A DNA stretch of 61,002 nt. Source: a virus (taxonomy: Duplodnaviria; Caudoviricetes). This document shows, piece by piece, positions 5,265 to 61,002 of the stretch; the stretch's first letter is position 1, and each line of letters starts with the position of its first letter. The stretch covers positions 1 to 61,002 of the IMG/VR virus record IMGVR_UViG_3300010396_000049; one strand, written 5' to 3'. The notes below the pieces were generated by a model, which saw nothing but the letters and a program-made list of their open reading frames with translations, did not search any database and had not been told where the DNA came from. A program made the position numbers and the translations under genes.

Positions 5265-5565
5265 TGACCTCTGCGGGTATTTTCTGCCCTACATGATCAT
5301 GGTGTTAGAAAGCCGGCTGAAGCTGAGCCGAAATACCGAAAACGAATTGGCTGAAATCGTTTGCCTCAGCGTGTTAGAAGATTTGGAAATCATGTTTCAA
5401 AGAAAAACTTTGACCGTGCAACAAAAGTTTACCATCAAATTAAAAAAAGCGGAAGCCGTGATACTGATGAAATTAATGATGCAGTTTCCGCTCAATGCGG
5501 AAGAATTCTGGCGCATGAATTTAAGAAACCAAATTATAGAACAGCTACACAAACAACTCGTATGA
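5233..5565 (+). CDS. Hypothetical protein
   Basis: Overlapping ORF in operon. Confidence 0.6.
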   Translation: MKLLLTRQYLDDLCGYFLPYMIMVLESRLKLSRNTENELAEIVCLSVLEDLEIMFQRKTLTVQQKFTIKLKKAEAVILMKLMMQFPLNAEEFWRMNLRNQIIEQLHKQLV

Positions 5566-5933: not shown

Positions 5934-6191
5934 ATGACTTCACTTCAAAAAGCAATTGTAAAAAACCTGCTGGAAGGCGCTACCATCGCCAACTGTAAAA
6001 GCAGCGGCTTCAGGCTGCGCACGCACAACGGTTCGGTAATAGCAAAATTTTATTCGCCCACATTTTATTCGCTAAAAAAATATTTGCGAAAAGAAAAGAG
6101 CGGATTGTTTGTGATCAATAAAAATGAAGTGCGCCAGCTTCATGGCAAGTCCTGGATAAAGAAAGAGTATAAAAAATTACAAACCGCGTGA
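5934..6191 (+). CDS. Hypothetical protein
   Basis: ORF with A-rich leader. Confidence 0.6.
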   Translation: MTSLQKAIVKNLLEGATIANCKSSGFRLRTHNGSVIAKFYSPTFYSLKKYLRKEKSGLFVINKNEVRQLHGKSWIKKEYKKLQTA

Positions 6192-6418
6192 GGCTTGAAT
6201 TACATATCAACGGATCTTTTTTTTATGCTGCAGAGATAGAGGAAAAGAAAATGGCACCATTTGCATTTCAATTTAAATCAAGAGTCAGCATGAACCAGGA
6301 AACAGTAAATATGTTGGTAATGGTACTAAAGGCACATTTCTACAAGCAGCTTTCAAACGTAAGTGAATACGAAATATATTTTGTAGCAGAGAGTAGAGGG
6401 GATTCAATTATCATTTAA
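6188..6418 (+). CDS. Hypothetical protein
   Basis: GTGA-coupled ORF. Confidence 0.5.
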   Translation: MRLELHINGSFFYAAEIEEKKMAPFAFQFKSRVSMNQETVNMLVMVLKAHFYKQLSNVSEYEIYFVAESRGDSIII

Positions 6419-6430
6419 AAAATTAAAACC

Positions 6431-6727
6431 ATGTTTTTTCCTAGAACTTTAGATGAAGCCGTAGATTATTTACTACCAAAATTTGACGGCATGGAAAAAT
6501 ATTTCGGGATGAATGAAGAAGAATTTACATCTTTTTGCCACAGCCAAAGAAGTGGTGGAATAGGAATGTCTATTAGAAATGAAATGGGTTTCTGGACCAA
6601 AAACACGCTAATTTATAAGCACATGATTGAAGTGCAGAAATTGGATCATCCGGATGCGATGAGCAAGTTAATTCTAACCATGATTTACAGGAAAAAAGTA
6701 TCTCAAATTAATCAACTTAAAAAATAA
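6431..6727 (+). CDS. DUF6794-like protein
   Basis: PRTLDEA...GMSIRNEMGFW...HPDAMS. Confidence 0.6.
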   Translation: MFFPRTLDEAVDYLLPKFDGMEKYFGMNEEEFTSFCHSQRSGGIGMSIRNEMGFWTKNTLIYKHMIEVQKLDHPDAMSKLILTMIYRKKVSQINQLKK

Positions 6728-6729
6728 AA

Positions 6730-7101
6730 ATGCAATACAGCCCAAAATTAAAAATAGCAATGGAGGAGATTAAAGAAATTCTCAACAAGCATGATATCGC
6801 CGGATTTATTATTCTTCATACGCCCGGCTTTTCTGAATACCTGAATCATTTAATGGCTTCATATTCCTGCGCGAAAGTTATGCCTGATGGAATCAGGCTA
6901 AAATTAAAACAAAGCGAAGTTGGAAAAGAAAAAGCTGAACAGATAGCAAATGACACTTTTAATATGATCGTTCATTTAACCAGGCATCTCTCGAATAATT
7001 CAATGATGTATATGAATTGTGAAAAATTATTAAAAGAAAAATTAGGTGGAACTGAATTACCTGGAGGCGGCCATACTTCGCATGAGCAACAAAATAATTA
7101 A
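6730..7101 (+). CDS. Hypothetical protein
   Basis: ORF in operon. Confidence 0.65.
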   Translation: MQYSPKLKIAMEEIKEILNKHDIAGFIILHTPGFSEYLNHLMASYSCAKVMPDGIRLKLKQSEVGKEKAEQIANDTFNMIVHLTRHLSNNSMMYMNCEKLLKEKLGGTELPGGGHTSHEQQNN

Positions 7102-7133
7102 AACTAAATATATTTTTCAAAAAATCTAAAATA

Positions 7134-7700
7134 ATGAAAGTAATATCACTCCTTCAGCCATGGGCAACACTTGTTGTTACCGGCGCTAAAAAAATTGAAA
7201 CTCGTTCCTGGAACACTACTTATAGAGGCCCATTACTCATTCATGCAAGTAAGAAAATGACCAAGGCCCAGAAAGAACTAACACATTCAAAAATGTTTTG
7301 GAGCAAATTAAAACATTTGGAAGAGTTACCACTAGGTTGTATTGTTGGTAAGGCTGACATCATAAAAACTGCTTCAACAGAATATTTCAATTGTTTCTTT
7401 CAAGTAAAAAAATTTAAAGAATTACAGGCTCTTACCGGGCCGGGATCGGTTAATTTAAAAACAAAAGACGAGCAGGCGTTCGGTGATTTTTCAAAAGGAA
7501 GATTTGGCTGGCTTCTTAAAGATCCTGTTTCATTTGAACATCATTATCCTGTAAACGGGAATAGAAGCTTGTGGGATTTCAATGAAAGAATTTGTTTACA
7601 ATGCGGATGCTCAGAAAGCGACGCCTGCGTAGACCCGGACTTTGGTTCGTGCTGGTGGGCGGAAGATTATTTATGCAGCCACTGCACAAAAATAGTTTAA
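7134..7700 (+). CDS. ASCH-domain protein with C-terminal Cys cluster
   Basis: SLLQPWA...GAKKIETRSW...RGPLLIHAS; CLQCGCSESDAC...CWW...LCSHC. Confidence 0.88.
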   Translation: MKVISLLQPWATLVVTGAKKIETRSWNTTYRGPLLIHASKKMTKAQKELTHSKMFWSKLKHLEELPLGCIVGKADIIKTASTEYFNCFFQVKKFKELQALTGPGSVNLKTKDEQAFGDFSKGRFGWLLKDPVSFEHHYPVNGNRSLWDFNERICLQCGCSESDACVDPDFGSCWWAEDYLCSHCTKIV

Positions 7701-7716
7701 AACTAAAAATTAAATC

Positions 7717-7959
7717 ATGAATATTTATTTCCATCCTGATATTGACAAAAAACAAAAAAGGTTTTTGTTTATGGAGCCCAAATATTATGAAATGCTTGCG
7801 ATGATTTCAAATGGGTTTACGGCTAAGGAATGCAGCAAAGAATTAAAAATTTCATCACGCACTATCGAGGCAAGGCTGGTAACGCTGCGGGAAGAATTTG
7901 AATGCAAAAATACGATTCATCTAATTGCAGAATTAGTCAGAAAAGGAATCATAAAATAA
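7717..7959 (+). CDS. LuxR/GerE-type HTH protein
   Basis: GFTAKECSKELKISSRTIEARL...LIAELVRKGII. Confidence 0.8.
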   Translation: MNIYFHPDIDKKQKRFLFMEPKYYEMLAMISNGFTAKECSKELKISSRTIEARLVTLREEFECKNTIHLIAELVRKGIIK

Positions 7960-7970
7960 CACTTTACTTC

Positions 7971-8405
7971 ATGGAATTAAAAAACATCGAAGCCGCCAAC
8001 AAATTATTTGAGCAATTAAAAAACGTGGACGCGGCCATCCACGCAATCAATAAGCTGGCGAAGAAAGTAGTGAATACAGAAACCACTTCTTTACTGAAGC
8101 TAACGGTCATAGATGAACGTAAAAAAAATGAGGAAGCTTCAAAAGCTTCTTTTGATGAAGACGGCTCATTGATCGGCCCCCAGGAAGAAATGTTGAGGAG
8201 GCACCTAACCCAGTCTTTTAGTTTGAATTTTGGAGGATTTTTTGGAGGCTTTGCAAAAGGTAGCCAGGATAAACCTGCGGAAGAAATCTCTCACGATCTC
8301 ACAGAAGGGGAAACGATGGCGCTTTTGCAAATGCTGCTGCATATAAAAAATAAAACACGCAAAGCAATTATTGAACAATTAAAAACCTTGGGATTCCGGG
8401 AATAA
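7971..8405 (+). CDS. Hypothetical protein
   Basis: ORF in operon. Confidence 0.6.
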   Translation: MELKNIEAANKLFEQLKNVDAAIHAINKLAKKVVNTETTSLLKLTVIDERKKNEEASKASFDEDGSLIGPQEEMLRRHLTQSFSLNFGGFFGGFAKGSQDKPAEEISHDLTEGETMALLQMLLHIKNKTRKAIIEQLKTLGFRE

Positions 8406-8536
8406 AAATTTTTAAAAATGAAAACAATATTTTTTATTGATGAAGTGCGCGAGCTGGTTGATAGTTACGCGAATAAAAAAATAACGATTGCAAAACTCAC
8501 AGAAGCCAAATTAGTAAAAACTTAAAATTTAAAATA

Positions 8537-9316
8537 ATGCAAAACGACATCTCATTCTGGAAAAAGTTCATCGAACTTAATTTGAATTATAACATAGATT
8601 ATATGGTTGAAAATTCAATAAAAGATTTCCATTTCAAAGGATTGAACTACATCTGCTTTCAGTTTATGCCACATTTAACTGTGAGGCTTTATGTAATTGA
8701 ACCGTCAGAACCTGTGGACACAAAAAACGTAAACATTCATAATCATTTGTACGATAGTCAAATTTTGGTTTTGACAAGTAGTATTACGAATAATGTTTAT
8801 AAAAAAATAGATGGTGAAGATTACAACCATTACTATTTGACAAGTGCATTATGCCCAACGAATGAAAGTAAAAAAATAAAACTGGATACGCTTGGGAAAT
8901 GCAGCTTAGAGCAAATTAAAAGTATTCAGTTATTTCCAGGCGATTCGCATTTTCAAGACCATACAGAAATTCATAACGTAGAAAACGACACCACAAAATT
9001 GACAGCCTTTATGGTGTTTGAATTTCCAACTGTAAAACACAATTCAATACTATTTAGCAAAAAAGATTACGGGAAAACAATACCAACAGATAATTGCTAT
9101 AATAGATTTTCAGCAACTGAAATTAAAAAACATTGGGAAGAAGTTGAGCCCGGATATTTTGATAGAAACAGAAAATTTATAGACAAAGATGGATGGCTTA
9201 ATGCAAACATGTTCTTTTTTAAAAAACTCACTAAAAAAGGTGAAAAACTTATTGATGTAAAAGATGGCTGTTTTTTACGTCCTAAAACTTTAGGGGTTGT
9301 TTTAAATGGCGCCTAA
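8537..9316 (+). CDS. Cupin-like hypothetical protein (cassette 1 gene)
   Basis: IHNHLYDSQILVL...EIHNV; stop TAA coincides with TAAC of site 1. Confidence 0.55.
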   Translation: MQNDISFWKKFIELNLNYNIDYMVENSIKDFHFKGLNYICFQFMPHLTVRLYVIEPSEPVDTKNVNIHNHLYDSQILVLTSSITNNVYKKIDGEDYNHYYLTSALCPTNESKKIKLDTLGKCSLEQIKSIQLFPGDSHFQDHTEIHNVENDTTKLTAFMVFEFPTVKHNSILFSKKDYGKTIPTDNCYNRFSATEIKKHWEEVEPGYFDRNRKFIDKDGWLNANMFFFKKLTKKGEKLIDVKDGCFLRPKTLGVVLNGA

Positions 9317-9440
9317 CGGACGGGTGTTGCCGATGTACCGGCAATAGCGTTTCGTCAGCTTGGTAAGTTAGATGAAGTTCTTAAATAGTACAACAGTTCA
9401 ATACAATTCCGTCAGCCGGTATATTGGCAACACAATGTTA
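9314..9440 (+). repeat. attC-like cassette site 1
   Basis: TAAC-6nt-GTGTTGCCGATGTACCGGC...GCCGGTATATTGGCAACAC-3nt-GTTA. Confidence 0.85.
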
Positions 9441-9465
9441 CCGGAAGGGCGGCAAATTATAGAAA

Positions 9466-10179
9466 ATGATGAATACAAATAAACCACTTGGCAAAAAGGC
9501 TTACGGCTCAATTCCGCATCTTCCAGGTTCAAGACTTGGACCCGGCGATTATTGCATAAGTGAAGGGCAGGCACGAATAGCAACCGAAAAGCCAAGAGAT
9601 AAGCACGACCTAATAATTGTGCAAGAAAAACTGGACGGTTCAAATGTAGCTATTGCCAAACTGGATGGTAAAATACTTGCCTTAACCAGGGCAGGATATT
9701 TGGCAAATACATCTCCTTTTAAACAGCATCATTTTTTTGCAAAATGGGTAGAAGAAAATAAAGCCAGATTTGTTGCTTTACTGAATGAAAAAGAAAGATT
9801 ATCAGGTGAATGGCTTGCAATGGCGCACGGAACACGTTACGATTTACCACATGAGCCGTTTGTTTGTTTTGATTTAATTACAGGAACCGAAAGAATTATT
9901 TATAAAAACTTTGAAGCAAGAGTAAGGAAACAGGATTTTATTATCCCAAATCTGCTTCACATTGGCGGCAGCTTTTCCATTGAAAGTATGATAAGGGCAA
10001 TTTCAAAAAGTGGACATGGTGCGATTGATGAAGTAGAGGGTGCAATTTGGCGTGTTGAAAGAAAAGAGAAAGTTGATTTTTTATGTAAATATGTTCATCA
10101 TAATAAACAGGATGGAAAATATTTTGAAGAAGTTACAGGTAAAGGTGAGGTTTGGAACTGTGATGTTTCTCGCTGGTAG
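9466..10179 (+). CDS. ATP-dependent RNA ligase-family adenylyltransferase (cassette 2)
   Basis: QEKLDGSN (motif I KxDG), GEW, FVCFD, EGAIWR, CKYV. Confidence 0.82.
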   Translation: MMNTNKPLGKKAYGSIPHLPGSRLGPGDYCISEGQARIATEKPRDKHDLIIVQEKLDGSNVAIAKLDGKILALTRAGYLANTSPFKQHHFFAKWVEENKARFVALLNEKERLSGEWLAMAHGTRYDLPHEPFVCFDLITGTERIIYKNFEARVRKQDFIIPNLLHIGGSFSIESMIRAISKSGHGAIDEVEGAIWRVERKEKVDFLCKYVHHNKQDGKYFEEVTGKGEVWNCDVSRW

Positions 10180-10188
10180 CCTTGCCGG

Positions 10189-10272
10189 TAACGTTGAAGC
10201 ATTGGCGATGGCCGCCAATGCGAACACTGAATAATCACAGACTGTCCGGCGGCTATTGCCAATGCAATGTTA
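10189..10272 (+). repeat. attC-like cassette site 2
   Basis: TAAC-GTTGAA-GCATTGGCGATGGCCGCC...GGCGGCTATTGCCAATGC-AAT-GTTA. Confidence 0.85.
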
Positions 10273-10307
10273 TATGCTGTGTATTTTAATCTTTAAAAAA
10301 TGAAAGA

Positions 10308-10667
10308 ATGGAAGTAAATCAAAGAAACTTAATGGCTGGTAATTACATTGATGTCATGGGAACTTTTCAAATTGTATTAGGTATCGTTTTTCGTGAAGAA
10401 CTCGGTAATTGGTTCATTCAGCACACTGGAAGCGATTCTGAAAATATACCAATACCTTCTGGAATTGAATTTACAGGAAAAGGTATTTATGCGACTAAAG
10501 AATGGAAAAAATGGCTCGGGGTAGAAAAAAGACGTTTCCCGAAACATATAAAGTTTGTGCATGAAATTCAAAACTATTGTCTTTGGCATTTCGGAATTAT
10601 GCTTTCTGAAAATGTAGACTTTGATTTATTGCCTGAAATATGTAACGTTTCGGGGCATAGCATATAA
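10308..10667 (+). CDS. Hypothetical protein (cassette 3), divergent ELRIGN/HQLQN-family member
   Basis: NLMAGNYI...KFVHEIQNY; stop within TAAC of site 3. Confidence 0.6.
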   Translation: MEVNQRNLMAGNYIDVMGTFQIVLGIVFREELGNWFIQHTGSDSENIPIPSGIEFTGKGIYATKEWKKWLGVEKRRFPKHIKFVHEIQNYCLWHFGIMLSENVDFDLLPEICNVSGHSI

Positions 10668-10792
10668 CGTGTTAGGGCTTTGTGCAGTATGGGAAATCAA
10701 GGAACAAAAGTTCAGCTCTTGCACACAGCCAAATTGAAAAACTAAAGTTCAGAATGTGTGCGTCTGCCCATATTGCACAAAACCCCTTGTTA
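10665..10792 (+). repeat. attC-like cassette site 3
   Basis: TAAC-GTGTTA-GGGCTTTGTGCAGTATGGG...CCCATATTGCACAAAACCC-CTT-GTTA. Confidence 0.85.
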
Positions 10793-10850
10793 TCGGTTCG
10801 TGCCGGGCTATTTGAAAAGAATTGTCAAACCAAAAAAGTAAAACTATAAA

Positions 10851-11141
10851 ATGAAAAAATGCTACATAGCCGGGAAGATTGGCGACTTGCCCGAAGCTGA
10901 ATACAAAGCCGCGTTTGAAAAAGCAAAAGAAGAAGTAAAAGCATTGGGCTTTGAGCCTGTAAGCCCTGTTGATTTGCCACATAAGCATGGAAGAAGTTGG
11001 GGCGAATACATGAGGGAGGATTTAACTGAAATGCTTAAATGTGATAGCCTTTATGCTTTAAGAAATTGGCGGCTGTCACCCGGTGCAACGATTGAAATTA
11101 ATACGGCTATGTCTGTCGGATTACACATCATCCATCAATAG
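10851..11141 (+). CDS. DUF4406 / nucleoside deoxyribosyltransferase-like protein (cassette 4)
   Basis: CYIAGKI...F...PVSP...WGEYMREDL..ML.CD...W..SPGATIE. Confidence 0.82.
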   Translation: MKKCYIAGKIGDLPEAEYKAAFEKAKEEVKALGFEPVSPVDLPHKHGRSWGEYMREDLTEMLKCDSLYALRNWRLSPGATIEINTAMSVGLHIIHQ

Positions 11142-11160
11142 GACTGGTAGGCATGACCGA

Positions 11161-11285
11161 TAACGTTTCACGGCTTTCTGATGCGGGGATTCAATGAACG
11201 TCAGCCCACTAACGCACCACAGCCAGTAAACGAACAAATGTTCAGGATTTGCACTTTCGCCACCGTATCAGAAAACCGATTGTTG
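11161..11285 (+). repeat. attC-like cassette site 4
   Basis: TAAC-GTTTCA-CGGCTTTCTGATGCGG...CCGTATCAGAAAACCG-ATT-GTTG. Confidence 0.85.
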
Positions 11286-11334
11286 GCGGTTCGTTTTTTC
11301 CGCTGTGAATTTTAAAGACTATAAAATAAATTAT

Positions 11335-11679
11335 ATGATAAAAGCAAATGAGTTAAGAATTGGGAATTATGTTCAACATGAACCGTACCCGGATGAAAGA
11401 TGGCTGGTTGATATGCGGTTACTTGAATCTATAGACCTCGAATTAGTGGAATGCGTGGGTATTCCTTTAACGACTGAAATATTAGTTAAATGCGGGTTTG
11501 AGTTATTCCCCTGGGGATGGGTAAGCAGAGTAGCAAACAAAAGAAGTGTTCGCATCACAGCGTTTCACTTTTTGTTTGAAAGAGAGGGACAAACGTCTTT
11601 GAAAATAAAATCGTTGCATCAACTTCAAAATTTATATTTCGCTTTAACTGGTGAAGAGTTGGAAGTCTCGTTAAAATGA
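11335..11679 (+). CDS. ELRIGN...HQLQNLYFALTGEEL family phage protein (cassette 5)
   Basis: Terminal motifs shared with 31641-32108. Confidence 0.7.
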   Translation: MIKANELRIGNYVQHEPYPDERWLVDMRLLESIDLELVECVGIPLTTEILVKCGFELFPWGWVSRVANKRSVRITAFHFLFEREGQTSLKIKSLHQLQNLYFALTGEELEVSLK

Positions 11680-11683
11680 CCGC

Positions 11684-11801
11684 CAACGTTGAAGCATTGG
11701 CGTCTGTTGCCGCTTCCTGTTGCTAAATTGAAATACAAATGTTGATTATTTATTCGTCTGCTGAATAGCGAACCTGCGGCAATAGCGCCAATGCAGTGTT
11801 A
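11684..11801 (+). repeat. attC-like cassette site 5
   Basis: CAAC-GTTGAA-GCATTGGCGTCTGTTGCCGC...GCGGCAATAGCGCCAATGC-AGT-GTTA. Confidence 0.85.
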
Positions 11802-11883
11802 CAGGCAGGCGGGCAAAAAAAATAGTTCTTTGAAATTGAAGGGAAAAATATTTTTTTAAAAAAAGTTGAAAAATATTTTGTTG

Positions 11884-11907
11884 GTATCAAAAATGATACT
11901 ATATTTG
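11884..11907 (+). promoter_or_regulatory. Operator palindrome abutting Bacteroidota -7 promoter in cassette 6
   Basis: GTATCA-AAAA-TGATAC immediately before TATATTTG. Confidence 0.65.
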
Positions 11908-11960
11908 TGTAACAAAACAATTAAAGCAGGCGGCAACTGGGTAAATACGGCGAAAAGAAA

Positions 11961-12314
11961 ATGGCACGTCAATTAACTTCAACAGAAAAAAAAGAATTAA
12001 GAAGCTGGGCTAAACACAATAGTCTTAATCTTGATTACAACAAAAAATTAGATTTTGGACACGGATTTTGGCAAGGTGAGGATATTGCTTCATTAAAGGC
12101 GGCTTTATTAGACTTACAAGACGCTTCTGCCCTTAGGCAGAATGCAAGAATTGCCGTTGGTGAAAAATATGTTGCTTATGATGTGGTAGCCCACCTGGGT
12201 AATGAAAACGGTTTAGAATTGATTGGCTATGAAGGCAAAGAGTATTGGATAAATTTCAAAAGCCTTCCTTATGTGAATGGTTATTTGGCAATTCCTAAAT
12301 TACTTTTGAAATAA
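11961..12314 (+). CDS. Hypothetical protein (cassette 6, gene 1)
   Basis: ORF after own promoter. Confidence 0.65.
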   Translation: MARQLTSTEKKELRSWAKHNSLNLDYNKKLDFGHGFWQGEDIASLKAALLDLQDASALRQNARIAVGEKYVAYDVVAHLGNENGLELIGYEGKEYWINFKSLPYVNGYLAIPKLLLK

Positions 12315-12526
12315 TGGACGAAAAAAAATTAAATGAAAGCCGTCAACAAATAGCGGCTTTCATTCAAAATAAACGCAACGAATTAGGCATCTCTCAAGCC
12401 GTATTAGCCGAACAAACCGGAATGGGAATTGCAACAATAAAGCGTTTTGAAAGCGGTAAATATTGGTTAAATATGAAGCAGTATATTTTGCTTCGTGACG
12501 CACTACAACTGCCTACTTCTTTTTAG
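12314..12526 (+). CDS. XRE-family HTH protein (cassette 6, gene 2)
   Basis: KRNELGISQAVLAEQTGMGIATIKRFESG. Confidence 0.88.
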   Translation: MDEKKLNESRQQIAAFIQNKRNELGISQAVLAEQTGMGIATIKRFESGKYWLNMKQYILLRDALQLPTSF

Positions 12527-12629
12527 ATTTTCCCCTCAATTTATTTTATAAAAAATTACAGTGCCTGCAATCGCTGATGGTGGTAGCTTGCCTGTAACGT
12601 ATTCATTAACGAACTTAAACCAATACACA

Positions 12630-12860
12630 ATGTTTTACAGCGAAAATGTGCCGTTGATAGCGGCAAAGCCTGCCCTTGTTGAAGGCAGGTATAAAATCAC
12701 AACCGAACAAAAAGAACGGTTGAAAGAGCTGGAAGAAAAGTTACATATTCCGGCATCGGCTTTAATCCGCATGGCGCTGGATAGTTTTTTGCCAAAAACA
12801 AATAACCAGGGATTTACTGAGAAAGGAATTAAAGCCGGGTACTTAAATGGAAATTATTAA
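12630..12860 (+). CDS. Ribbon-helix-helix-like small DNA-binding protein
   Basis: YKITTEQKERLKEL...PASALIRMALDSFL. Confidence 0.65.
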   Translation: MFYSENVPLIAAKPALVEGRYKITTEQKERLKELEEKLHIPASALIRMALDSFLPKTNNQGFTEKGIKAGYLNGNY

Positions 12861-13119
12861 CCCAAAAATCAATATCATGAAAAAATCAGATTACATTTTA
12901 ATTTCTATCCTAACGGTGCTGGCTATTGCCGGCGTAATTATCAAAGGGTATTTTGGCGGCCTCCTCACCGGCAGCTGCGCGGCTACTTTGCTTTTTGTAA
13001 CTATTGGTAAAATAGCTTACCACAAGGCAAAGAAAAGAATGGACAATTTAAATGAAGCGATCTATCATGCCAACAGCGTGGCGAAGCAAATGGATGATAG
13101 TGAACCCACAAATAAGTAA
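12847..13119 (+). CDS. Small membrane protein
   Basis: Two hydrophobic segments. Confidence 0.6.
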   Translation: MEIINPKINIMKKSDYILISILTVLAIAGVIIKGYFGGLLTGSCAATLLFVTIGKIAYHKAKKRMDNLNEAIYHANSVAKQMDDSEPTNK

Positions 13120-13131
13120 CATTTTAATTTT

Positions 13132-13398
13132 CTACGATTCCGGGTCCTGCAATGCATCAAATTCGTCCTGGAGCGCATCTATCTGGCTTTGCACTTCGGC
13201 AACGGCCTGGGCAAGCAAAAAGCTTTCCATATCAGCCAGCGAAGTAGTGAGCGCTGCGGGTGGCGCCGATGGCTGCGGGCGCTTCTTAAGCACAATTACT
13301 TTTTGTGTGTCCGGCAGCGCCAATTCTGCTTTGATTACATTTAAATAATCGAGCGTTGTTTTAAGGCCAGTTGCCGTGATGAAGGTGGTGTTTAGCAT
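13132..13398 (-). CDS. Hypothetical protein (end of tail operon)
   Basis: ORF co-oriented with tail genes. Confidence 0.55.
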   Translation of the reverse strand: MLNTTFITATGLKTTLDYLNVIKAELALPDTQKVIVLKKRPQPSAPPAALTTSLADMESFLLAQAVAEVQSQIDALQDEFDALQDPES

Positions 13399-13442
13399 TT
13401 TGTTTAATTGTTAATTGTTAATTGATAATTATTAATTGATAT

Positions 13443-15254
13443 TTATAGAACTATTAATTGTACGTCCATCGTTTCTTTCATCGGGATCGTTTTCTCTGTC
13501 AGGTTTAGCAGGTAGAAACAATTTTTTATTTCTAAAAAATTATTATTCTGAATTCCTGCCATCACGCGGCGGTCTATATCGAGTGACGTTTTTACGGTTT
13601 CCTGGTTTTGTTTTATTTGCTGCCAATCGTCATGAAATATTTTTGCAATACCGGTGTCACCGCTCCAGGCCAGGGAGAAAGAATTGATCAATACATTATT
13701 GCTGTCGCGGTTATGGTTCCAGGAAAAAGGCACCAGTACATTGCTGCTGTTATTCCTTCGCCCGGCAAAAAATATTTTGTTGCCAAAATCTGATTTTACC
13801 AATATGCCTTTGTTGTTGATATAAGAGCCCGTCAGCCGCGCGCCTACATAATCTTTTCTTACATACAATTGTGAATCAGGATCCAGTTCTATATAAGTGC
13901 AAAGTGTGCTGATGGTAATATCTACATTGCGGGCGCCAGCGCCGGATACATAAGAATCCAACGCTTCTGCATACGCATCCCATTTAACCGGGCTGGTGGT
14001 AGCATCTGCTACTTCATAATAAATATTTTCTGCAGTTACAAAAACGATATCATCTGTAGTCAGCTGGCGCCCTGGGTTTACGTTTGCCAAATCGTCCCAG
14101 CGCGAAACAGTAGCTACTAAAGTTTTATCCTTTAAATCTTTTACCCAATCGCCCTGGTAATTATCATTTCCCCATTGGTAAGCCAGCGTGTACCCATCAC
14201 CGTTATTAACTGTTTGTTTGTCGCTGGTAAATAATTCTGCTGCAATTCCGTTCAGCGAAAAAATCTTTTTTTCTGTTTTTAAATTCTTCCTGAATTTTAA
14301 TTGCACCAGGTTGCTGCCGCTAAAAACAGGGTACATATTAAAAAAGCTGAAGAGGCCCTTTAAATAATCTATTAGCAGGATATCCGGAACATGGTTCGTA
14401 GGAAAAATGTACCGGTTATAATCATGATGGTCCGGGGAATAATTTTCTATGGCGTAATTATTAAAGGTTGCCAAATCATCAAAATCGGCGCTATCAAAAA
14501 ATTCCCCTGAAACAATATAGCCTTGCTCTTCAAAAACTTTTCGCAGTAAGTATTTTGTTTTAATAAAAGGAATAGTGCGGTAATCAGCATATTCTTCATT
14601 GCCTTCTACTGCAGCGATTGAAGGGTCCTCTTCGGTAGGCCTGCCAAACATCCATGCATCCGGGCCTGCGCCGGTAACCATCACGGTATTCACCGTATCT
14701 TTTGCCAGGAATTCATCATCATAATCAGGGCGCGAAGTATCGAAAAAGCTTTCAATGGCCACGGGCACGAACGTAATATAATTGTACGCCGGGTAACCGC
14801 CTTTCATCAGGCTCTCAGCAAAATGGCGGCTGTCCAGGCCTTCCCAAGATATTTTGCCTCCGAGTGAAAGATCGGTCAGTTTTTTATTTTTTATCTGGCT
14901 TCCGAATAAACCTTTTGTGCCGGTAATAACCGATTGAAAAGTTCCCTTGGTACCTGAGAAATTTCCATTTTTGCCGATGATAGAAAATTGAGCGGCGGTA
15001 AGCTCCGGGTAAAAATCGTCATACACCGCCGCCTTGTAGGCCATACCAGTGTAATTAAAATTTTTAAACCGTTCTGCGTTGCCCAATAACCTGCGGTTAT
15101 GTTCTGTCCATGGCACATCCATCGGCAACGAATATTCACCCAGCGTAAGTTCCTCATCGAAGATATCTGAAAGGGATTCAATGTCCAATTCGGTATTGGG
15201 AAGGAGCTCGAGAAAACCAGATTCTATGGGGCCGTAAATATATATCTGTAGCAA
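13443..15254 (-). CDS. Putative tail tip/baseplate protein
   Basis: 603 aa, downstream of tape measure; GEYSLPMDVPWTEHNRRLLG. Confidence 0.65.
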   Translation of the reverse strand: MLQIYIYGPIESGFLELLPNTELDIESLSDIFDEELTLGEYSLPMDVPWTEHNRRLLGNAERFKNFNYTGMAYKAAVYDDFYPELTAAQFSIIGKNGNFSGTKGTFQSVITGTKGLFGSQIKNKKLTDLSLGGKISWEGLDSRHFAESLMKGGYPAYNYITFVPVAIESFFDTSRPDYDDEFLAKDTVNTVMVTGAGPDAWMFGRPTEEDPSIAAVEGNEEYADYRTIPFIKTKYLLRKVFEEQGYIVSGEFFDSADFDDLATFNNYAIENYSPDHHDYNRYIFPTNHVPDILLIDYLKGLFSFFNMYPVFSGSNLVQLKFRKNLKTEKKIFSLNGIAAELFTSDKQTVNNGDGYTLAYQWGNDNYQGDWVKDLKDKTLVATVSRWDDLANVNPGRQLTTDDIVFVTAENIYYEVADATTSPVKWDAYAEALDSYVSGAGARNVDITISTLCTYIELDPDSQLYVRKDYVGARLTGSYINNKGILVKSDFGNKIFFAGRRNNSSNVLVPFSWNHNRDSNNVLINSFSLAWSGDTGIAKIFHDDWQQIKQNQETVKTSLDIDRRVMAGIQNNNFLEIKNCFYLLNLTEKTIPMKETMDVQLIVL

Positions 15255-37314: not shown

Positions 37315-37389
37315 GGCGTTCCCTTCGGGCGGGCTATCCGTTCCAATCTTTTGCTTAGGCAAAAGGATTTCCACTGCTATCCCTAACGC
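37315..37389 (+). repeat. Bacteroidota-type GC-rich palindromic repeat
   Basis: GGGCGTTCCCTTCGGGCGGGCTATCCG...CCACTGCTATCCCTAACGC; family recognition from memory. Confidence 0.5.
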
Positions 37390-37713
37390 ATAATATGACA
37401 CTGCTCGTAAACGGCAGAGTCACATTAATAAACCCGCAGATGCCAATGCCGGGTTCATTTCGTTTGCGGTTACCACGCGTCCGCTTTGCTCCCGACCGGG
37501 TAATCCTCACTAATGAACCGGCACCCGCATCGCTGCAACAGTCCATCGTACCTCGGACACTTGCAGGCCATGGCACCGGCGCAGATGCATTCGATTGATT
37601 TCGTTTCATATTCGTCCACTGGCCACACTTCCTCTACCGCTCGCTTCGCTCACGACATCAGGCGTTCGCCTGTTCCCTCATAACCTCATCACTCGAATGC
37701 ACCAGCTCCCAAC

Positions 37714-48490: not shown

Positions 48491-48571
48491 CTCATCACTC
48501 ATCACTCATCACTCATAACTCATAACCCATAACTCATACCTCCTAACTCATCACTCCTAACTCCAAAAAAA

Positions 48572-53867: not shown

Positions 53868-54581
53868 TTAGGTAAATGTAGTTTTCTTCTCCTCTCCTTC
53901 GGGGAGAGGGCCGGGGTGAGGTTCATTTGGTAAATTTAAATTATAATAAATAACAACGTCGGAATCAATAAACCCATCTATATCAGTTATTCTAAAAATA
54001 AATGCCTTATGGCTTTTATCAATAATTGATTTTACTTCATCTGTTTCATCTCGAGGCACATAACCAATCAGGCCAGATGGTGAGACTACTTTTATTGCGT
54101 TCGGATCGTATTTATTATGAGGTTCTTTTTTCAAAGTTACTTGGTCATATACAACGCAATCTTCGAGTTTTTTTTGATAAGATTTCACCTGTAATCCTTT
54201 TATTCCAAAATAATACTGATCTGAATATTGGCTAAGATTTTCCTTTTCCATTTGATATTCTTTGATATCAAATCCCCAGTAAATTGGCCTATAATATAGA
54301 AGGCTGCAATTAATCTTATCGTGGAATAGTTTATCAAGCTGCTCAGGAATTATAATTCCTTTTTGTTTGAGCTGATGATAAATCTGTCTAACAACATCAG
54401 AATCCCGGGATAAAATAAAACGGACTACATCCTTTGGATTTGCTGTTTCCGGGTTAGGAACTGACAATTCCACGCTCTGTGACTGTATGTTAGTAAAAGG
54501 GATCTTATTATTGTTCCCCCCGGAAGAATAAGCGATACATACAATAAGTACAATACAGGCAATTGCTATAAAAAATAACAT
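53868..54581 (-). CDS. Membrane-anchored HIRAN-domain protein
   Basis: N-terminal TM; LKKEPHNKYDPNAIKV...IGYVP. Confidence 0.8.
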   Translation of the reverse strand: MLFFIAIACIVLIVCIAYSSGGNNNKIPFTNIQSQSVELSVPNPETANPKDVVRFILSRDSDVVRQIYHQLKQKGIIIPEQLDKLFHDKINCSLLYYRPIYWGFDIKEYQMEKENLSQYSDQYYFGIKGLQVKSYQKKLEDCVVYDQVTLKKEPHNKYDPNAIKVVSPSGLIGYVPRDETDEVKSIIDKSHKAFIFRITDIDGFIDSDVVIYYNLNLPNEPHPGPLPEGEEKKTTFT

Positions 54582-54654
54582 TGCAATATTTTTTGTTAAT
54601 GAAAATTCGTCTAACCATCATCGTTATGTGCAATCAAATCAAAATTCCTCCAAA

Positions 54655-59370: not shown

Positions 59371-59583
59371 ATGAAAAACCTGGCAACCATACGAACCATG
59401 AATTCAGCGATGCTGTTAACCCCCGGAGAAAAAAGAATTGTAGATTTGATTTCTACTGCAATCATTAAAAAAACTTTCAAAAATGAAAAAAGGAATCCGC
59501 TATTTGCGCTTCAGCAAAGACAAACAAAGTGTGTTAAGCATAGAGAGGCAAGATCTGGTAACAAGCCTGTGGATGAATCATAA
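59371..59583 (+). CDS. Small protein overlapping integrase start
   Basis: ORF adjacent to integrase; function unknown. Confidence 0.4.
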   Translation: MKNLATIRTMNSAMLLTPGEKRIVDLISTAIIKKTFKNEKRNPLFALQQRQTKCVKHREARSGNKPVDES

Positions 59584-61002
59584 TGGCATAGAAATTTTTG
59601 ACACTTTCATCGACGATGGCTATTCGGCAAAAACTTTTGACCGTCCTGATATGAAAAATTTGATGCTTTTTGTAAAGAAAAATTACCGGGAAATTGATTA
59701 CCTCGTGGTCGCAGAGCTCACGCGCTTCAGCCGTGATTTAGGTGATGCCGTTAACCTGGTGAAGAGCATTCAAAAAGCTTATGATATCAGAATTGTAAGT
59801 GCCAGCCGCGGCGCCATCTACGATTGCAGCGATAGCAATTCATTTTTCATGATGTCTTTGGAATTCCTACTTGGCAATTCCGAAAACCTGAAACGCGAAA
59901 GCGATATTAACGGCGGCATATATACCGCAAAAGCAAAAGAAGGAAGGTACATCCATGGGCAACCTCCATATGGGTATTTTAAAGATGGTACCGGAGCAAC
60001 ATCACGGTTATGCATAGACGAAGAAAAGGCAAAAGTGGTTCGTTACATATTTTCAGCTTACTTAAAAAATGTTCCTTTCCTAATCATCTATGAGGAAGCA
60101 AAAAAAATAGGCTTTCCTCATAAGGGCCACGGAGCCATCCAGAAGATCCTCAGCAACCCGCTTTATTCTGCGCAGCAAATGGTAAAGCCCTGGCGCGAGC
60201 ATCCGGGAGGATTGTTCCCGGCGCTTCATCAACCGATCGTCGACATGATCACCTGGAAAGACGCGCAGGTGAAACTGAAAAATAAAAGCCGCCCGGGAAT
60301 ATCTATCTCTGATGAAATGCCTTTGCGTGGCGTCTTACGCTGCCATTGCTCACAACCGGTAACGGGGGCACCGAGCCGCAACCGTTGGAGCAATTATTAT
60401 TACTATTACAAATGCAAGCACAGCCGCCACGTAAATATTTCCGTAATAAAAGCGCATGAGAAGCTCATCGCAGCCTTAAGTTATATGAGCCTTACGGACA
60501 GGATGGCCTATGCAATTCAAATCAGCAGTGAGCAAAAATTTGATGAACAGGTAAAAGAAAACCGAAAAATACTGGCGAAGAAAAAAACAGAGCTCGAAGA
60601 AATTCACGATCGTATCGAGAGCCTCGAAGAAAAATACCTGGCCAACAAAATCGAATTTGAAACTTACAACAAATGGTTTAGTGAGCTACGCCAGCGCCGC
60701 ACCATCACCAGGGCGCATATAGATCAGTTACAACGTGATGACAGCAGCTTATACCTGCTGATGCAAAACAACATTGAGCAGTTCACCGACCTGCCCTATG
60801 TATATAAAAATTTAGAAACAGCAGCAAAGCAGGAATTTATAAGAATAGTGTTCGACAGCAAACTCTACTGGAGAGACAACATCTATCGAACCCCTTACAT
60901 CATTCCTGCATTTTCACATAATTCATTAATTCTTAAACAAAAAGAGCTACTCGTAATAGAAGAAAAAAAGGGGCTTTCGTTGAAAGTCCCTCAGGGTGGA
61001 GC
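59483..61002 (+). CDS. Large serine recombinase (integrase); continues across the junction to TAG at 188-190 (~528 aa)
   Basis: Hand translation: MKKGIRYLRFSKDKQ (YxRxS catalytic motif), DDGYSAKTFDRP, LTRFSRD, PPYGY recombinase domain, LRGVLRCHC...YYYYKC zinc ribbon, coiled coil; absent from the ORF track because it lacks a stop before the window end. Confidence 0.93.
   Translation, partial: MKKGIRYLRFSKDKQSVLSIERQDLVTSLWMNHNGIEIFDTFIDDGYSAKTFDRPDMKNLMLFVKKNYREIDYLVVAELTRFSRDLGDAVNLVKSIQKAYDIRIVSASRGAIYDCSDSNSFFMMSLEFLLGNSENLKRESDINGGIYTAKAKEGRYIHGQPPYGYFKDGTGATSRLCIDEEKAKVVRYIFSAYLKNVPFLIIYEEAKKIGFPHKGHGAIQKILSNPLYSAQQMVKPWREHPGGLFPALHQPIVDMITWKDAQVKLKNKSRPGISISDEMPLRGVLRCHCSQPVTGAPSRNRWSNYYYYYKCKHSRHVNISVIKAHEKLIAALSYMSLTDRMAYAIQISSEQKFDEQVKENRKILAKKKTELEEIHDRIESLEEKYLANKIEFETYNKWFSELRQRRTITRAHIDQLQRDDSSLYLLMQNNIEQFTDLPYVYKNLETAAKQEFIRIVFDSKLYWRDNIYRTPYIIPAFSHNSLILKQKELLVIEEKKGLSLKVPQGG
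60880..61002 (+). repeat. Exact terminal direct repeat (copy 2)
   Basis: Identical to 1-123. Confidence 0.95.

Follow-up and report, generated by a model that had tools for sequence, protein, structure and literature searches.

The virus record IMGVR_UViG_3300010396_000049 of IMG/VR represents a complete virus of 61,002 bp with direct terminal repeats, and this whole stretch is called the window in the following. It encodes a tape measure protein, a head protease, a portal protein and tail proteins, i.e. the virus is a tailed phage. Between positions 8537 and 12634, five long hairpin-forming sites alternate with small genes. A previous sequence-only reading described this region as an array of mobile gene cassettes with non-canonical attC-like sites, which has no integron integrase and is served by a recombinase acting in trans, and the comparative evidence collected here supports that description. 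The region probably consists of five mobile cassettes, each with an attC-like site and one or more genes, that belong to an integron-like system of Bacteroidota. The features are listed below; bit scores refer to a covariance model (R1) that is introduced later, and the division into cassettes A-E is the one that we consider likely.

8537..9316, + strand: open reading frame (ORF) of 259 aa, phrog_8313, unknown function; left border, its end ...TGGCGCCTAAC resembles a cassette end
9315..10189, + strand: putative cassette A, site 1 plus an RNA ligase gene at 9466-10179 (PF09414); ends GTTACCGGAAGGGC / GCCTTGCCGGTAAC
9315..9439, + strand: site 1; AACG, 5 nt, 19-bp arm, loop, arm, 2 nt, TGTT; 102.6 bits
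10190..10665, + strand: putative cassette B, site 2 plus a 119-aa ORF at 10308-10667 without a family match
10190..10271, + strand: site 2, the short-loop form of 82 nt; 80.5 bits
10666..11161, + strand: putative cassette C, site 3 plus a DUF4406 / nucleoside deoxyribosyltransferase-like gene at 10851-11141
10666..10791, + strand: site 3; 97.5 bits
11162..11684, + strand: putative cassette D, site 4 plus a 114-aa ORF at 11335-11679 (phrog_10066)
11162..11284, + strand: site 4; 77.4 bits
11685..12595, + strand: putative cassette E, site 5, a promoter-like region, a 117-aa ORF at 11961-12314 and an HTH_3 ORF at 12314-12526; ends GTTACAGGCAGGC / GCTTGCCTGTAAC
11685..11800, + strand: site 5, one bulged base in the 5' arm; 85 bits
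12596..12634, + strand: right boundary, AAC without a hairpin after it; reads AAC-N6-ATTAACGAAC
59483..61000, + strand: large serine recombinase (search match 59495-59941), the only recombinase in the phage

All five sites are intergenic, have the same orientation (+), lie within 2.5 kb and measure 82-126 nt. They have a common layout, consisting of AAC, 6 nt, an imperfect arm of 16-20 bp, a loop, the return arm, 3 nt and GTT, and are found where the sequence-only reading had placed them, its coordinates taking in one base outside AAC and GTT. Because the invariant core is AACG...TGTT, the spacers are read here as 5 and 2 nt. The asymmetric internal loop and the long outer stem described before are thus retained, while their dimensions are refined from a 6/3 bulge and an outer arm of ~13-15 nt to 5/2 nt and ~12-15 bp. 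In a scan of the 61 kb for this geometry, sites 1-4 scored 14/16 arm pairs at spacers of 6/3, site 5 fitted only with one bulged arm base allowed, and the same geometry was not found elsewhere in the 61 kb except for two unrelated 13/16 matches. The scan gave 0-4 matches of at least 13/16 arm pairs in each of 20 shuffled sequences, and this comparison rules out chance palindromes as an explanation of the sites. An inverted-repeat search of the window lists the arms as I6, I7, I9 and I24. Stop codons fall in or near the AAC end, as had been noticed: two overlap it (9314-9316 and 10665-10667), and the other three stand 5, 10 and 20 nt before it.

The bases beyond the sites match across each intervening unit and not across a site. 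When the right flank of one site is compared with the reverse complement of the left flank of the next, 5, 7, 6, 6 and 7 contiguous bases agree beyond GTT/AAC (10, 9, 7, 9 and 10 over 14 positions), versus 0-2 contiguous bases for every other flank combination in the window. The fourth base was also read correctly, site 4 being TAAC/GTTG and site 5 CAAC/GTTA. Since the flanks fail to pair across a site, insertion of elements resembling miniature inverted-repeat transposable elements (MITEs) into palindromic targets is ruled out. Taken together, layout, scan and flank tests show that the window had been described correctly. One correction concerns its left end, where the unit at 8537-9316 had been counted in the array. 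No partner sequence for the end of this unit was found (40 matches at ≤3 mismatches vs 43 expected), so we regard this ORF as the array border and not as a demonstrated cassette.

The sites belong to a family that occurs in phages and bacteria. An 18-mer common to sites 2 and 5 was located in 37 stretches of IMG/VR, and species-representative genomes contain it in at least 120 stretches, which are mostly Chitinophagaceae and other Bacteroidota according to the record titles. Ten contigs with the 18-mer (L039, L051, L071, L073, L095, L097, L119, L126, L142 and L156) are filed under metagenome-assembled genomes of other phyla, which include Bdellovibrionales, Verrucomicrobiae, Saccharibacteria and Babeliales; these contigs, several of them short, may be mis-binned phage or Bacteroidota DNA. 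We aligned 83 sites (alignment A2), which were picked by a scanner demanding 13/14 arm pairs. The motif AACG/TGTT, including a G.T wobble, is kept in all 83 of them, and the 18-bp inner stem is paired in 97.1% of the cells and all 22 pairs in 97.6%, versus 37-47% in slid controls; the pairing of the 14 scanner-picked columns is partly due to selection, columns 37-40 and the compensatory changes being free of it. Changes on both sides were observed at 15 of the 18 inner-stem pairs. Three G.T wobbles are nearly fixed (83/83, 79/83 and 64/83), the fixed ones standing at arm positions 9 and 12, and regular extrahelical bases were not seen in the aligned sites.

The covariance model R1 was built from this alignment. 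On the whole window it returns exactly five sites, with 77-103 bits on the + strand and 14-21 bits on the - strand. A weak match at 54565-54637 (-), with 16 bits, an E-value of 0.11 and a GC content of 0.26, is probably an unrelated hairpin. In viral loci, R1 finds 137 sites in 38 loci (opposite-strand echoes and matches under ~39 bits left out), in co-oriented arrays of up to 13 (L020), 9 (L033) and 9-10 sites (L013). After removal of L092, which duplicates L045, the bacterial set comprises 206 sites in 65 loci; there are up to 11 sites per 8 kb, not a single locus has mixed orientation, and the landmarks are kept in 136/142 viral and 184/206 bacterial matches. The viral locus L004 has two arrays facing each other, at 9680-11116 (+) and 11785-12756 (-). 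When 41 genomes from the family of one array-bearing genome were sampled, 29 had R1 matches at E ≤ 1e-6. The covariance model scan proposed with the sequence-only reading revealed that similar sites are widespread, that they form co-oriented arrays and that a tyrosine recombinase is linked to them in host genomes. The INPHARED phages gave no match to window positions 6001-14000, and a search with a single site gave only two chance-level Gordonia matches.

Family-wide, the sites are 67-230 nt long. Length classes of ~82, 123, 189 and 228 nt resemble repeat additions, and the loops show an 18-19-nt periodicity (e.g. window 10700-10765) with repeats like ACAAAWGYTSA, the loop base identity being 0.40-0.41 at lags 19 and 37 compared to ~0.30 elsewhere. 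Such loop repeats may be extra protein-binding sites. Moreover, the model strand folds better than its complement, by 2.05 kcal/mol in viral sites (115/142) and by 1.66 kcal/mol in bacterial sites (148/206), which is close in size to the bottom-strand advantage of mobile-integron attC sites given in PMC5371416.

The units between the sites have the ends and the breakpoints of cassettes. Among 106 adjacent viral site pairs, with a median unit of ~490 nt, the two ends of a unit pair at 10.2/12 positions on average and 63 pairs reach at least 11, compared to 6.8/12 in controls taken within a site or between non-adjacent sites; the end complementarity asserted earlier therefore holds against its controls. 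As far as sequence comparison goes, near-identical cassettes occur in unrelated contexts, with homology running from AAC to the next AAC. A common block of ~750 nt with 91-98% identity in L002, L034 and L037 begins at the first A of AAC and has unrelated left flanks, a segment of 829 nt that extends from AAC to AAC is 99.9% identical between L087 and L105, and the viral locus L021 and a Phnomibacter chromosome (L118) have 707 nt in common at 94.8%, again from AAC to AAC. We counted boundaries in 66 directed blocks reaching 120 nt or more beyond a hairpin. Of the 3' boundaries close to a landmark, 10 are located at AAC and one at GTT, the latter coming from the mixed-orientation locus L004, which entered this count with a wrong orientation; of the 5' boundaries close to a landmark, 19 are located at AAC and 12 at GTT. 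The remainder are far from annotated sites, and at several of these 'far' ends a terminal ...TTGC-NNNN-AAC was recognized, with a conserved motif after it in place of a hairpin. The ratio of 10 to 1 rules out the canonical crossover at the 3' GTT in gene orientation for the phage arrays. The boundary positions thus point to [AAC-hairpin-GTT-gene-NNNN] as the mobile phage unit, i.e. a hairpin together with its downstream gene. The earlier claim of recombination at G/TT stands insofar as this position equals G/TT on the complementary strand, whereas in the gene sense the break maps to the AAC end.

The nearest relative of the phage is the record behind L001 and L018, in which a 603-aa protein is 73% identical. 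It has the upstream genes in common with the window and none of the window ORFs between 8537 and 12526. L018 contains a single site, and its homology to the window starts exactly at the AAC of this site (window 11685), covers the hairpin and ~120 nt beyond, resumes for the last ~75 nt of cassette E and ends ...CCTGTAAC, the genes inside this site-5-type unit differing from those of cassette E. Directly after the terminal AAC (window 12596) L018 diverges, yet it keeps ATTGACGC at equal offset. The expectation that cassette content differs between related phages with breaks at the site is thus borne out, with the modification that the breaks lie at AAC and not at GTT in gene orientation. The occurrence of a cassette in more than one array, delimited at the crossover, was seen in the family; the five cassettes of the window gave no such case. 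Inside the ends of cassette E lies a second, longer-range inverted repeat (11833-11847 / 12528-12542, I21), which is kept with changed bases in L018 (~5300-5320 and ~6180-6200), with different ORFs between the repeats. The cassettes had been regarded as single-gene units, which is correct for A-D with one gene each; cassette E has two genes and its own promoter-like region, with a stretch TTTG...TATATTTG at ~11874-11908 that resembles the promoter consensus.

The search for an enzyme leads from the phage to bacterial genomes. A six-frame search of the window gave no tyrosine recombinase (no PF00589 match), and none was found in the five complete array-bearing phage records (the window, G048, G050, G051 and G054). 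As read before, the serine integrase is the only recombinase recognized in the phage; serine recombinases were found in 0/3 other complete array-bearing phages searched, so this enzyme is not a general partner of the arrays. In five array-bearing genomes, no canonical IntI scored over the cut-off. The best matches in them were tyrosine recombinases of 385-405 aa with PF00589 and PF13495, which among the NCBIfam models match XerA best (205-219 bits, slightly below the cut-off), and which reach 171-189 bits in two pieces with TIGR02249 (cut-off 265). The closest solved structures are archaeal XerA proteins (PDB 4a8e and 5hxy), with which residues 109-375 align without interruption (E 3e-40). The alignment with IntI4 is interrupted, IntI4 residues 186-246 (61 residues) lying opposite only 18 recombinase residues, i.e. 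the array recombinase is without the IntI-specific insert. It possesses an extra N-terminal region of ~110 residues. Thousands of its relatives carry only the database names XerD or site-specific integrase.

Homologues at E ≤ 1e-45 occur in 18 genomes of the 41-genome sample, at 23 places. An R1 site lies within 2 kb at 9 of these 23 places, as confirmed on the DNA, and four more loci were found separately. The GTT end of the sites faces the recombinase in all 13 loci, the gene being convergent in 10 and in tandem in 3. The suggestion of a linked tyrosine recombinase is therefore right in that such an enzyme abuts host arrays, and needs to be amended in that the enzyme is XerA-like and without the IntI insert. 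At 8/9 loci, the last unit ends TTGC-NNNN-AAC, ~100-150 nt from the recombinase gene, and pairs at 9-10/10 positions with its own start. After this terminal AAC at the recombinase end follows N4-AAATATACGC. In 1.34 Mb of loci, the motif AAC-N4-AAATATACGC was matched 18 times, versus ~1.3 times expected from a rough calculation, and 15-16 of the 18 stand in a TTGC/TGGC context. In the form AAC-N4-AAATATACGC(AAT) it marks the recombinase-proximal array end (L169-L177, L105, L084, L002, L034 and L037); AAC-N4-AAATATACGC is also present in viral contigs without a recombinase. A 99%-identical cassette stands inside the array in L087 and directly beside the motif in L105 and L084, and each of the viral loci L002, L034 and L037 has its common cassette beside a diverged motif copy. 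Insertion of circles at an attI site would be expected to leave a cassette in both positions, inside an array and beside the motif.

Phage and chromosomal arrays differ in polarity. The longest ORF of a viral unit is sense to the site in 64-65 cases and antisense in 1-3, whereas that of a bacterial unit is antisense in 90-95 cases and sense in 10. In phages, the hairpin lies 5' of the gene and the better-folding strand is the sense strand; the chromosomal arrays, when turned over, read recombinase, attI-like site and then gene plus 3' hairpin repeatedly, with the crossover at G/TT. The 65 viral cassette ORFs include 13 DNA methyltransferases (9 N6_N4, 2 C-5, 1 MT-A70 and 1 N6_Mtase) and 2 Mom proteins. 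Among 97 bacterial cassette ORFs (alignment A4, without three L070 ORFs that duplicate those of L045), 52 families were matched, nearly all of them once. Such cargo diversity is typical of chromosomal integrons. The bacterial ORFs include a streptomycin-resistance-type adenylyltransferase (PF04439, E 7e-80), MerT and an Mrr-type nuclease; the adenylyltransferase and MerT cassettes come from environmental Bacteroidota arrays and not from the phage. The gene of cassette C has a 38% homologue in L020, which is a cassette as well.

We read the region as an array that resembles a CALIN (a cluster of attC sites that has no integrase), consisting of site-plus-gene cassettes that would be served in trans by a host recombinase. 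The host is likely a member of Bacteroidota, because of the site family and of a Flavo-1 RNA (RF01705) at window 37323-37395 (-), which scores 53.7 bits, above the gathering score, and is the sole Rfam match in the phage. In the proposed mechanism, one strand of each site, in the window the gene-sense strand, would fold into a long imperfect hairpin with an outer stem TTGC-NNNN-AACG : TGTT-NNNN-GCAG, the 5/2 internal loop and an inner stem of 18-20 bp with two fixed G.T wobbles. This outer stem would be complete only in the circular cassette. A tyrosine recombinase would cut at the 5' AAC, presumably within this triplet, and exchange strands with a second such site or an attI-like site, so that cassettes would be excised as circles and then inserted. 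As the phage is without such an enzyme, the reaction would require a host-encoded XerA-like recombinase, which might act during infection or lysogeny and by which the window array may be rearranged at present.

Several points weigh against this interpretation. The case is one of sequence comparison, with no excised circle, deletion variant or recombination event among the evidence. The phage is without a tyrosine recombinase of its own, and the array recombinase is without the insert that is held, according to PMC7790495, to enable the recombination of folded single strands. The genes point one way relative to the site in phage arrays and the other way in chromosomal arrays, and the phage cassettes therefore cannot simply come from chromosomal arrays and stay expressed. 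A single crossover point does not account for the 12 5' boundaries at GTT, which imply that hairpins are sometimes exchanged apart from the gene. The right end of the window matches the attI-like motif weakly, positions 12596-12615 showing what may be a faint likeness to the motif of other arrays. Finally, near-identical copies of the window's own cassette genes were not found elsewhere.

Some of these points fit a fossil array, i.e. one that was assembled in a bacterium or an ancestral prophage with an integron-like platform and whose genes are now fixed phage genes, with hairpins that are relics or RNA elements. The missing recombinase, the cassettes without near-identical copies and the weak right-end motif are all in line with this explanation, which we nevertheless consider unlikely: decaying relics would not keep the full structure, the fixed wobbles and the paired unit ends in all five sites, the cassette content of the closest relative differs exactly at AAC, and other phage arrays have cassettes in common at 91-98% identity in different contexts. 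A less probable explanation still is that the hairpins act at the RNA level, in the processing, stability or attenuation of a polycistronic mRNA, and that the mosaic boundaries arose from homologous recombination within conserved hairpins. It would explain why the better-folding strand of phage sites, with its strictly conserved and G.U-compatible wobbles, is the sense strand in 64-65 units compared to 1-3. However, the genes of the chromosomal arrays are antisense to the folding strand by 90-95 to 10, the end-to-end pairing of units has no part in homologous exchange, and both a tyrosine recombinase and an attI-like motif are found in association with the arrays. Furthermore, window positions 9250-11850 gave no Rfam match even at E ≤ 10, i.e. 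no known RNA family fits the sites. Nor do they meet the pattern of intrinsic terminators (a short GC-rich stem with a small loop and a T run directly after it), none of the five hairpins having been called whole by the terminator search, which returned small sub-stems only. Very improbable, lastly, is the movement of the units by another class of enzyme, be it a single-strand HUH transposase (REP/IS200-IS605 type), a phage protein that went unrecognized or the phage serine integrase, since the hairpin substrate and the serine recombinase in the window, which would suit it, are opposed by the 0/3 serine recombinases in the complete array phages searched (HUH genes were outside this search) and by the tyrosine recombinase being the gene consistently found at array ends.

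Two observations concern the window beyond its cassette mobility. The 12-mer GTTAGGAGTTAT occurs five times on the - strand of the structural region (43024, 43080, 47669, 50205 and 50650), with near copies at 48536 and 48550. Regarding occurrence in nature, 15 metagenome runs from ten studies (soil, groundwater, freshwater, wastewater and sludge) contain 5-7% of the words sampled from window positions 8500-12700. A single further run contains the stretch in full and could be its source.

Returning to the array of mobile cassettes, its similarity to integrons, especially sedentary chromosomal ones, is extensive. Both have arrays that keep one orientation and whose cassettes mostly contain a single gene. 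Their sites are imperfect hairpins based on an invariant AAC/GTT, the outer (R) box is divided between the two complementary ends of a cassette, and the two strands fold unequally well. Further common features are the same cassette found inside arrays and at the recombinase-proximal attI-like junction, and a very diverse chromosomal cargo; the chromosomal arrays described here also have the gene before the site, the crossover at G/TT and the recombinase upstream. In contrast to integrons, the linked recombinase is XerA-like, with an N-terminal extension of ~110 aa and without the IntI-specific insert (I2 helix). The outer stem is ~12-15 bp long with conserved GCAG/TTGC, a 5/2 internal loop takes the place where the central spacer of an integron attC would be, and fixed G.T wobbles replace evident extrahelical bases. 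The sites differ further from those of integrons in their range of 67-230 nt, in loops with an 18-19-nt periodicity and, in phages, in their position 5' of the gene. With five sites in 2.5 kb and a complete genome without a tyrosine recombinase, the window array corresponds to a CALIN, provided that its sites count as attC.

The Xer/dif modules (IMEX, pdif) are gene modules bounded by inverted sites and moved by an Xer-clade tyrosine recombinase, and a dif-like site is a duplex of ~28 bp with two 11-bp arms and a 6-8-bp centre. The present system resembles them in the clade of its recombinase and in the bounding by inverted sites. It differs in that the sites are hairpins, of 82-126 nt in the window, with AAC/GTT, and in that the recombinase is dedicated and array-linked. 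XerA resolves chromosome dimers at dif; the array recombinase has cassette arrays and an N-terminal extension, and archaeal XerA has neither.

Clusters of attC sites in phages have already been published. In a survey of 10,705 phage genomes with canonical attC models, Qi et al. (2023; PMC9892861) detected 17 CALINs and noted methyltransferase cargo; they also showed the recombination of five phage attC sites by IntI1, one of them from Polaribacter phage P12002L, in which two divergently called sites are described. The arrays reported here resemble these phage CALINs in having no integrase and a cargo rich in DNA methyltransferases, and differ from them in forming a separate family with conserved site sequences and as many as 13 sites in one phage locus. 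In P12002L, R1 gives 7 matches (E 1e-7 to 0.009), all on the gene strand and between methyltransferase and Mom genes, and the AACG...TGTT geometry is visible in 5 of the 7. For Bacteroidetes, the IntegronFinder 2 article (PMC9024848) mentions nothing but lone integrases from before and then one complete integron in Salinibacter. Because this article reports almost no Bacteroidetes integrons, canonical models appear to miss most of the site family. An earlier description of this site and recombinase family was not found in the literature searched.

Generally, the data would fit into a broader picture, for which we see roughly even chances. Bacteroidota would possess a second, previously undescribed integron-like lineage, which would combine a XerA-like recombinase devoid of the I2 insert with an attI-like site of its own and an extended attC-like hairpin; large chromosomal cassette banks would exist in most of the Chitinophagaceae sampled, and phages would run a parallel pool of opposite polarity, loaded with DNA methyltransferases and other counter-defence genes and swapped by the host enzyme. 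Integrons have been regarded as nearly absent from Bacteroidota and as dependent on an insert unique to IntI. If the picture is true, a phylum that is very common in soil and freshwater has its own cassette-capture system, which is based on a plain Xer-type recombinase and of which canonical detection tools miss the largest part. This would bear directly on the origin of folded-single-strand recombination, and it would mean that phages shuffle anti-restriction genes through the cassette machinery of their hosts. Bench tests are possible with the recombinase, the attI-like motif and the hairpins as defined here.

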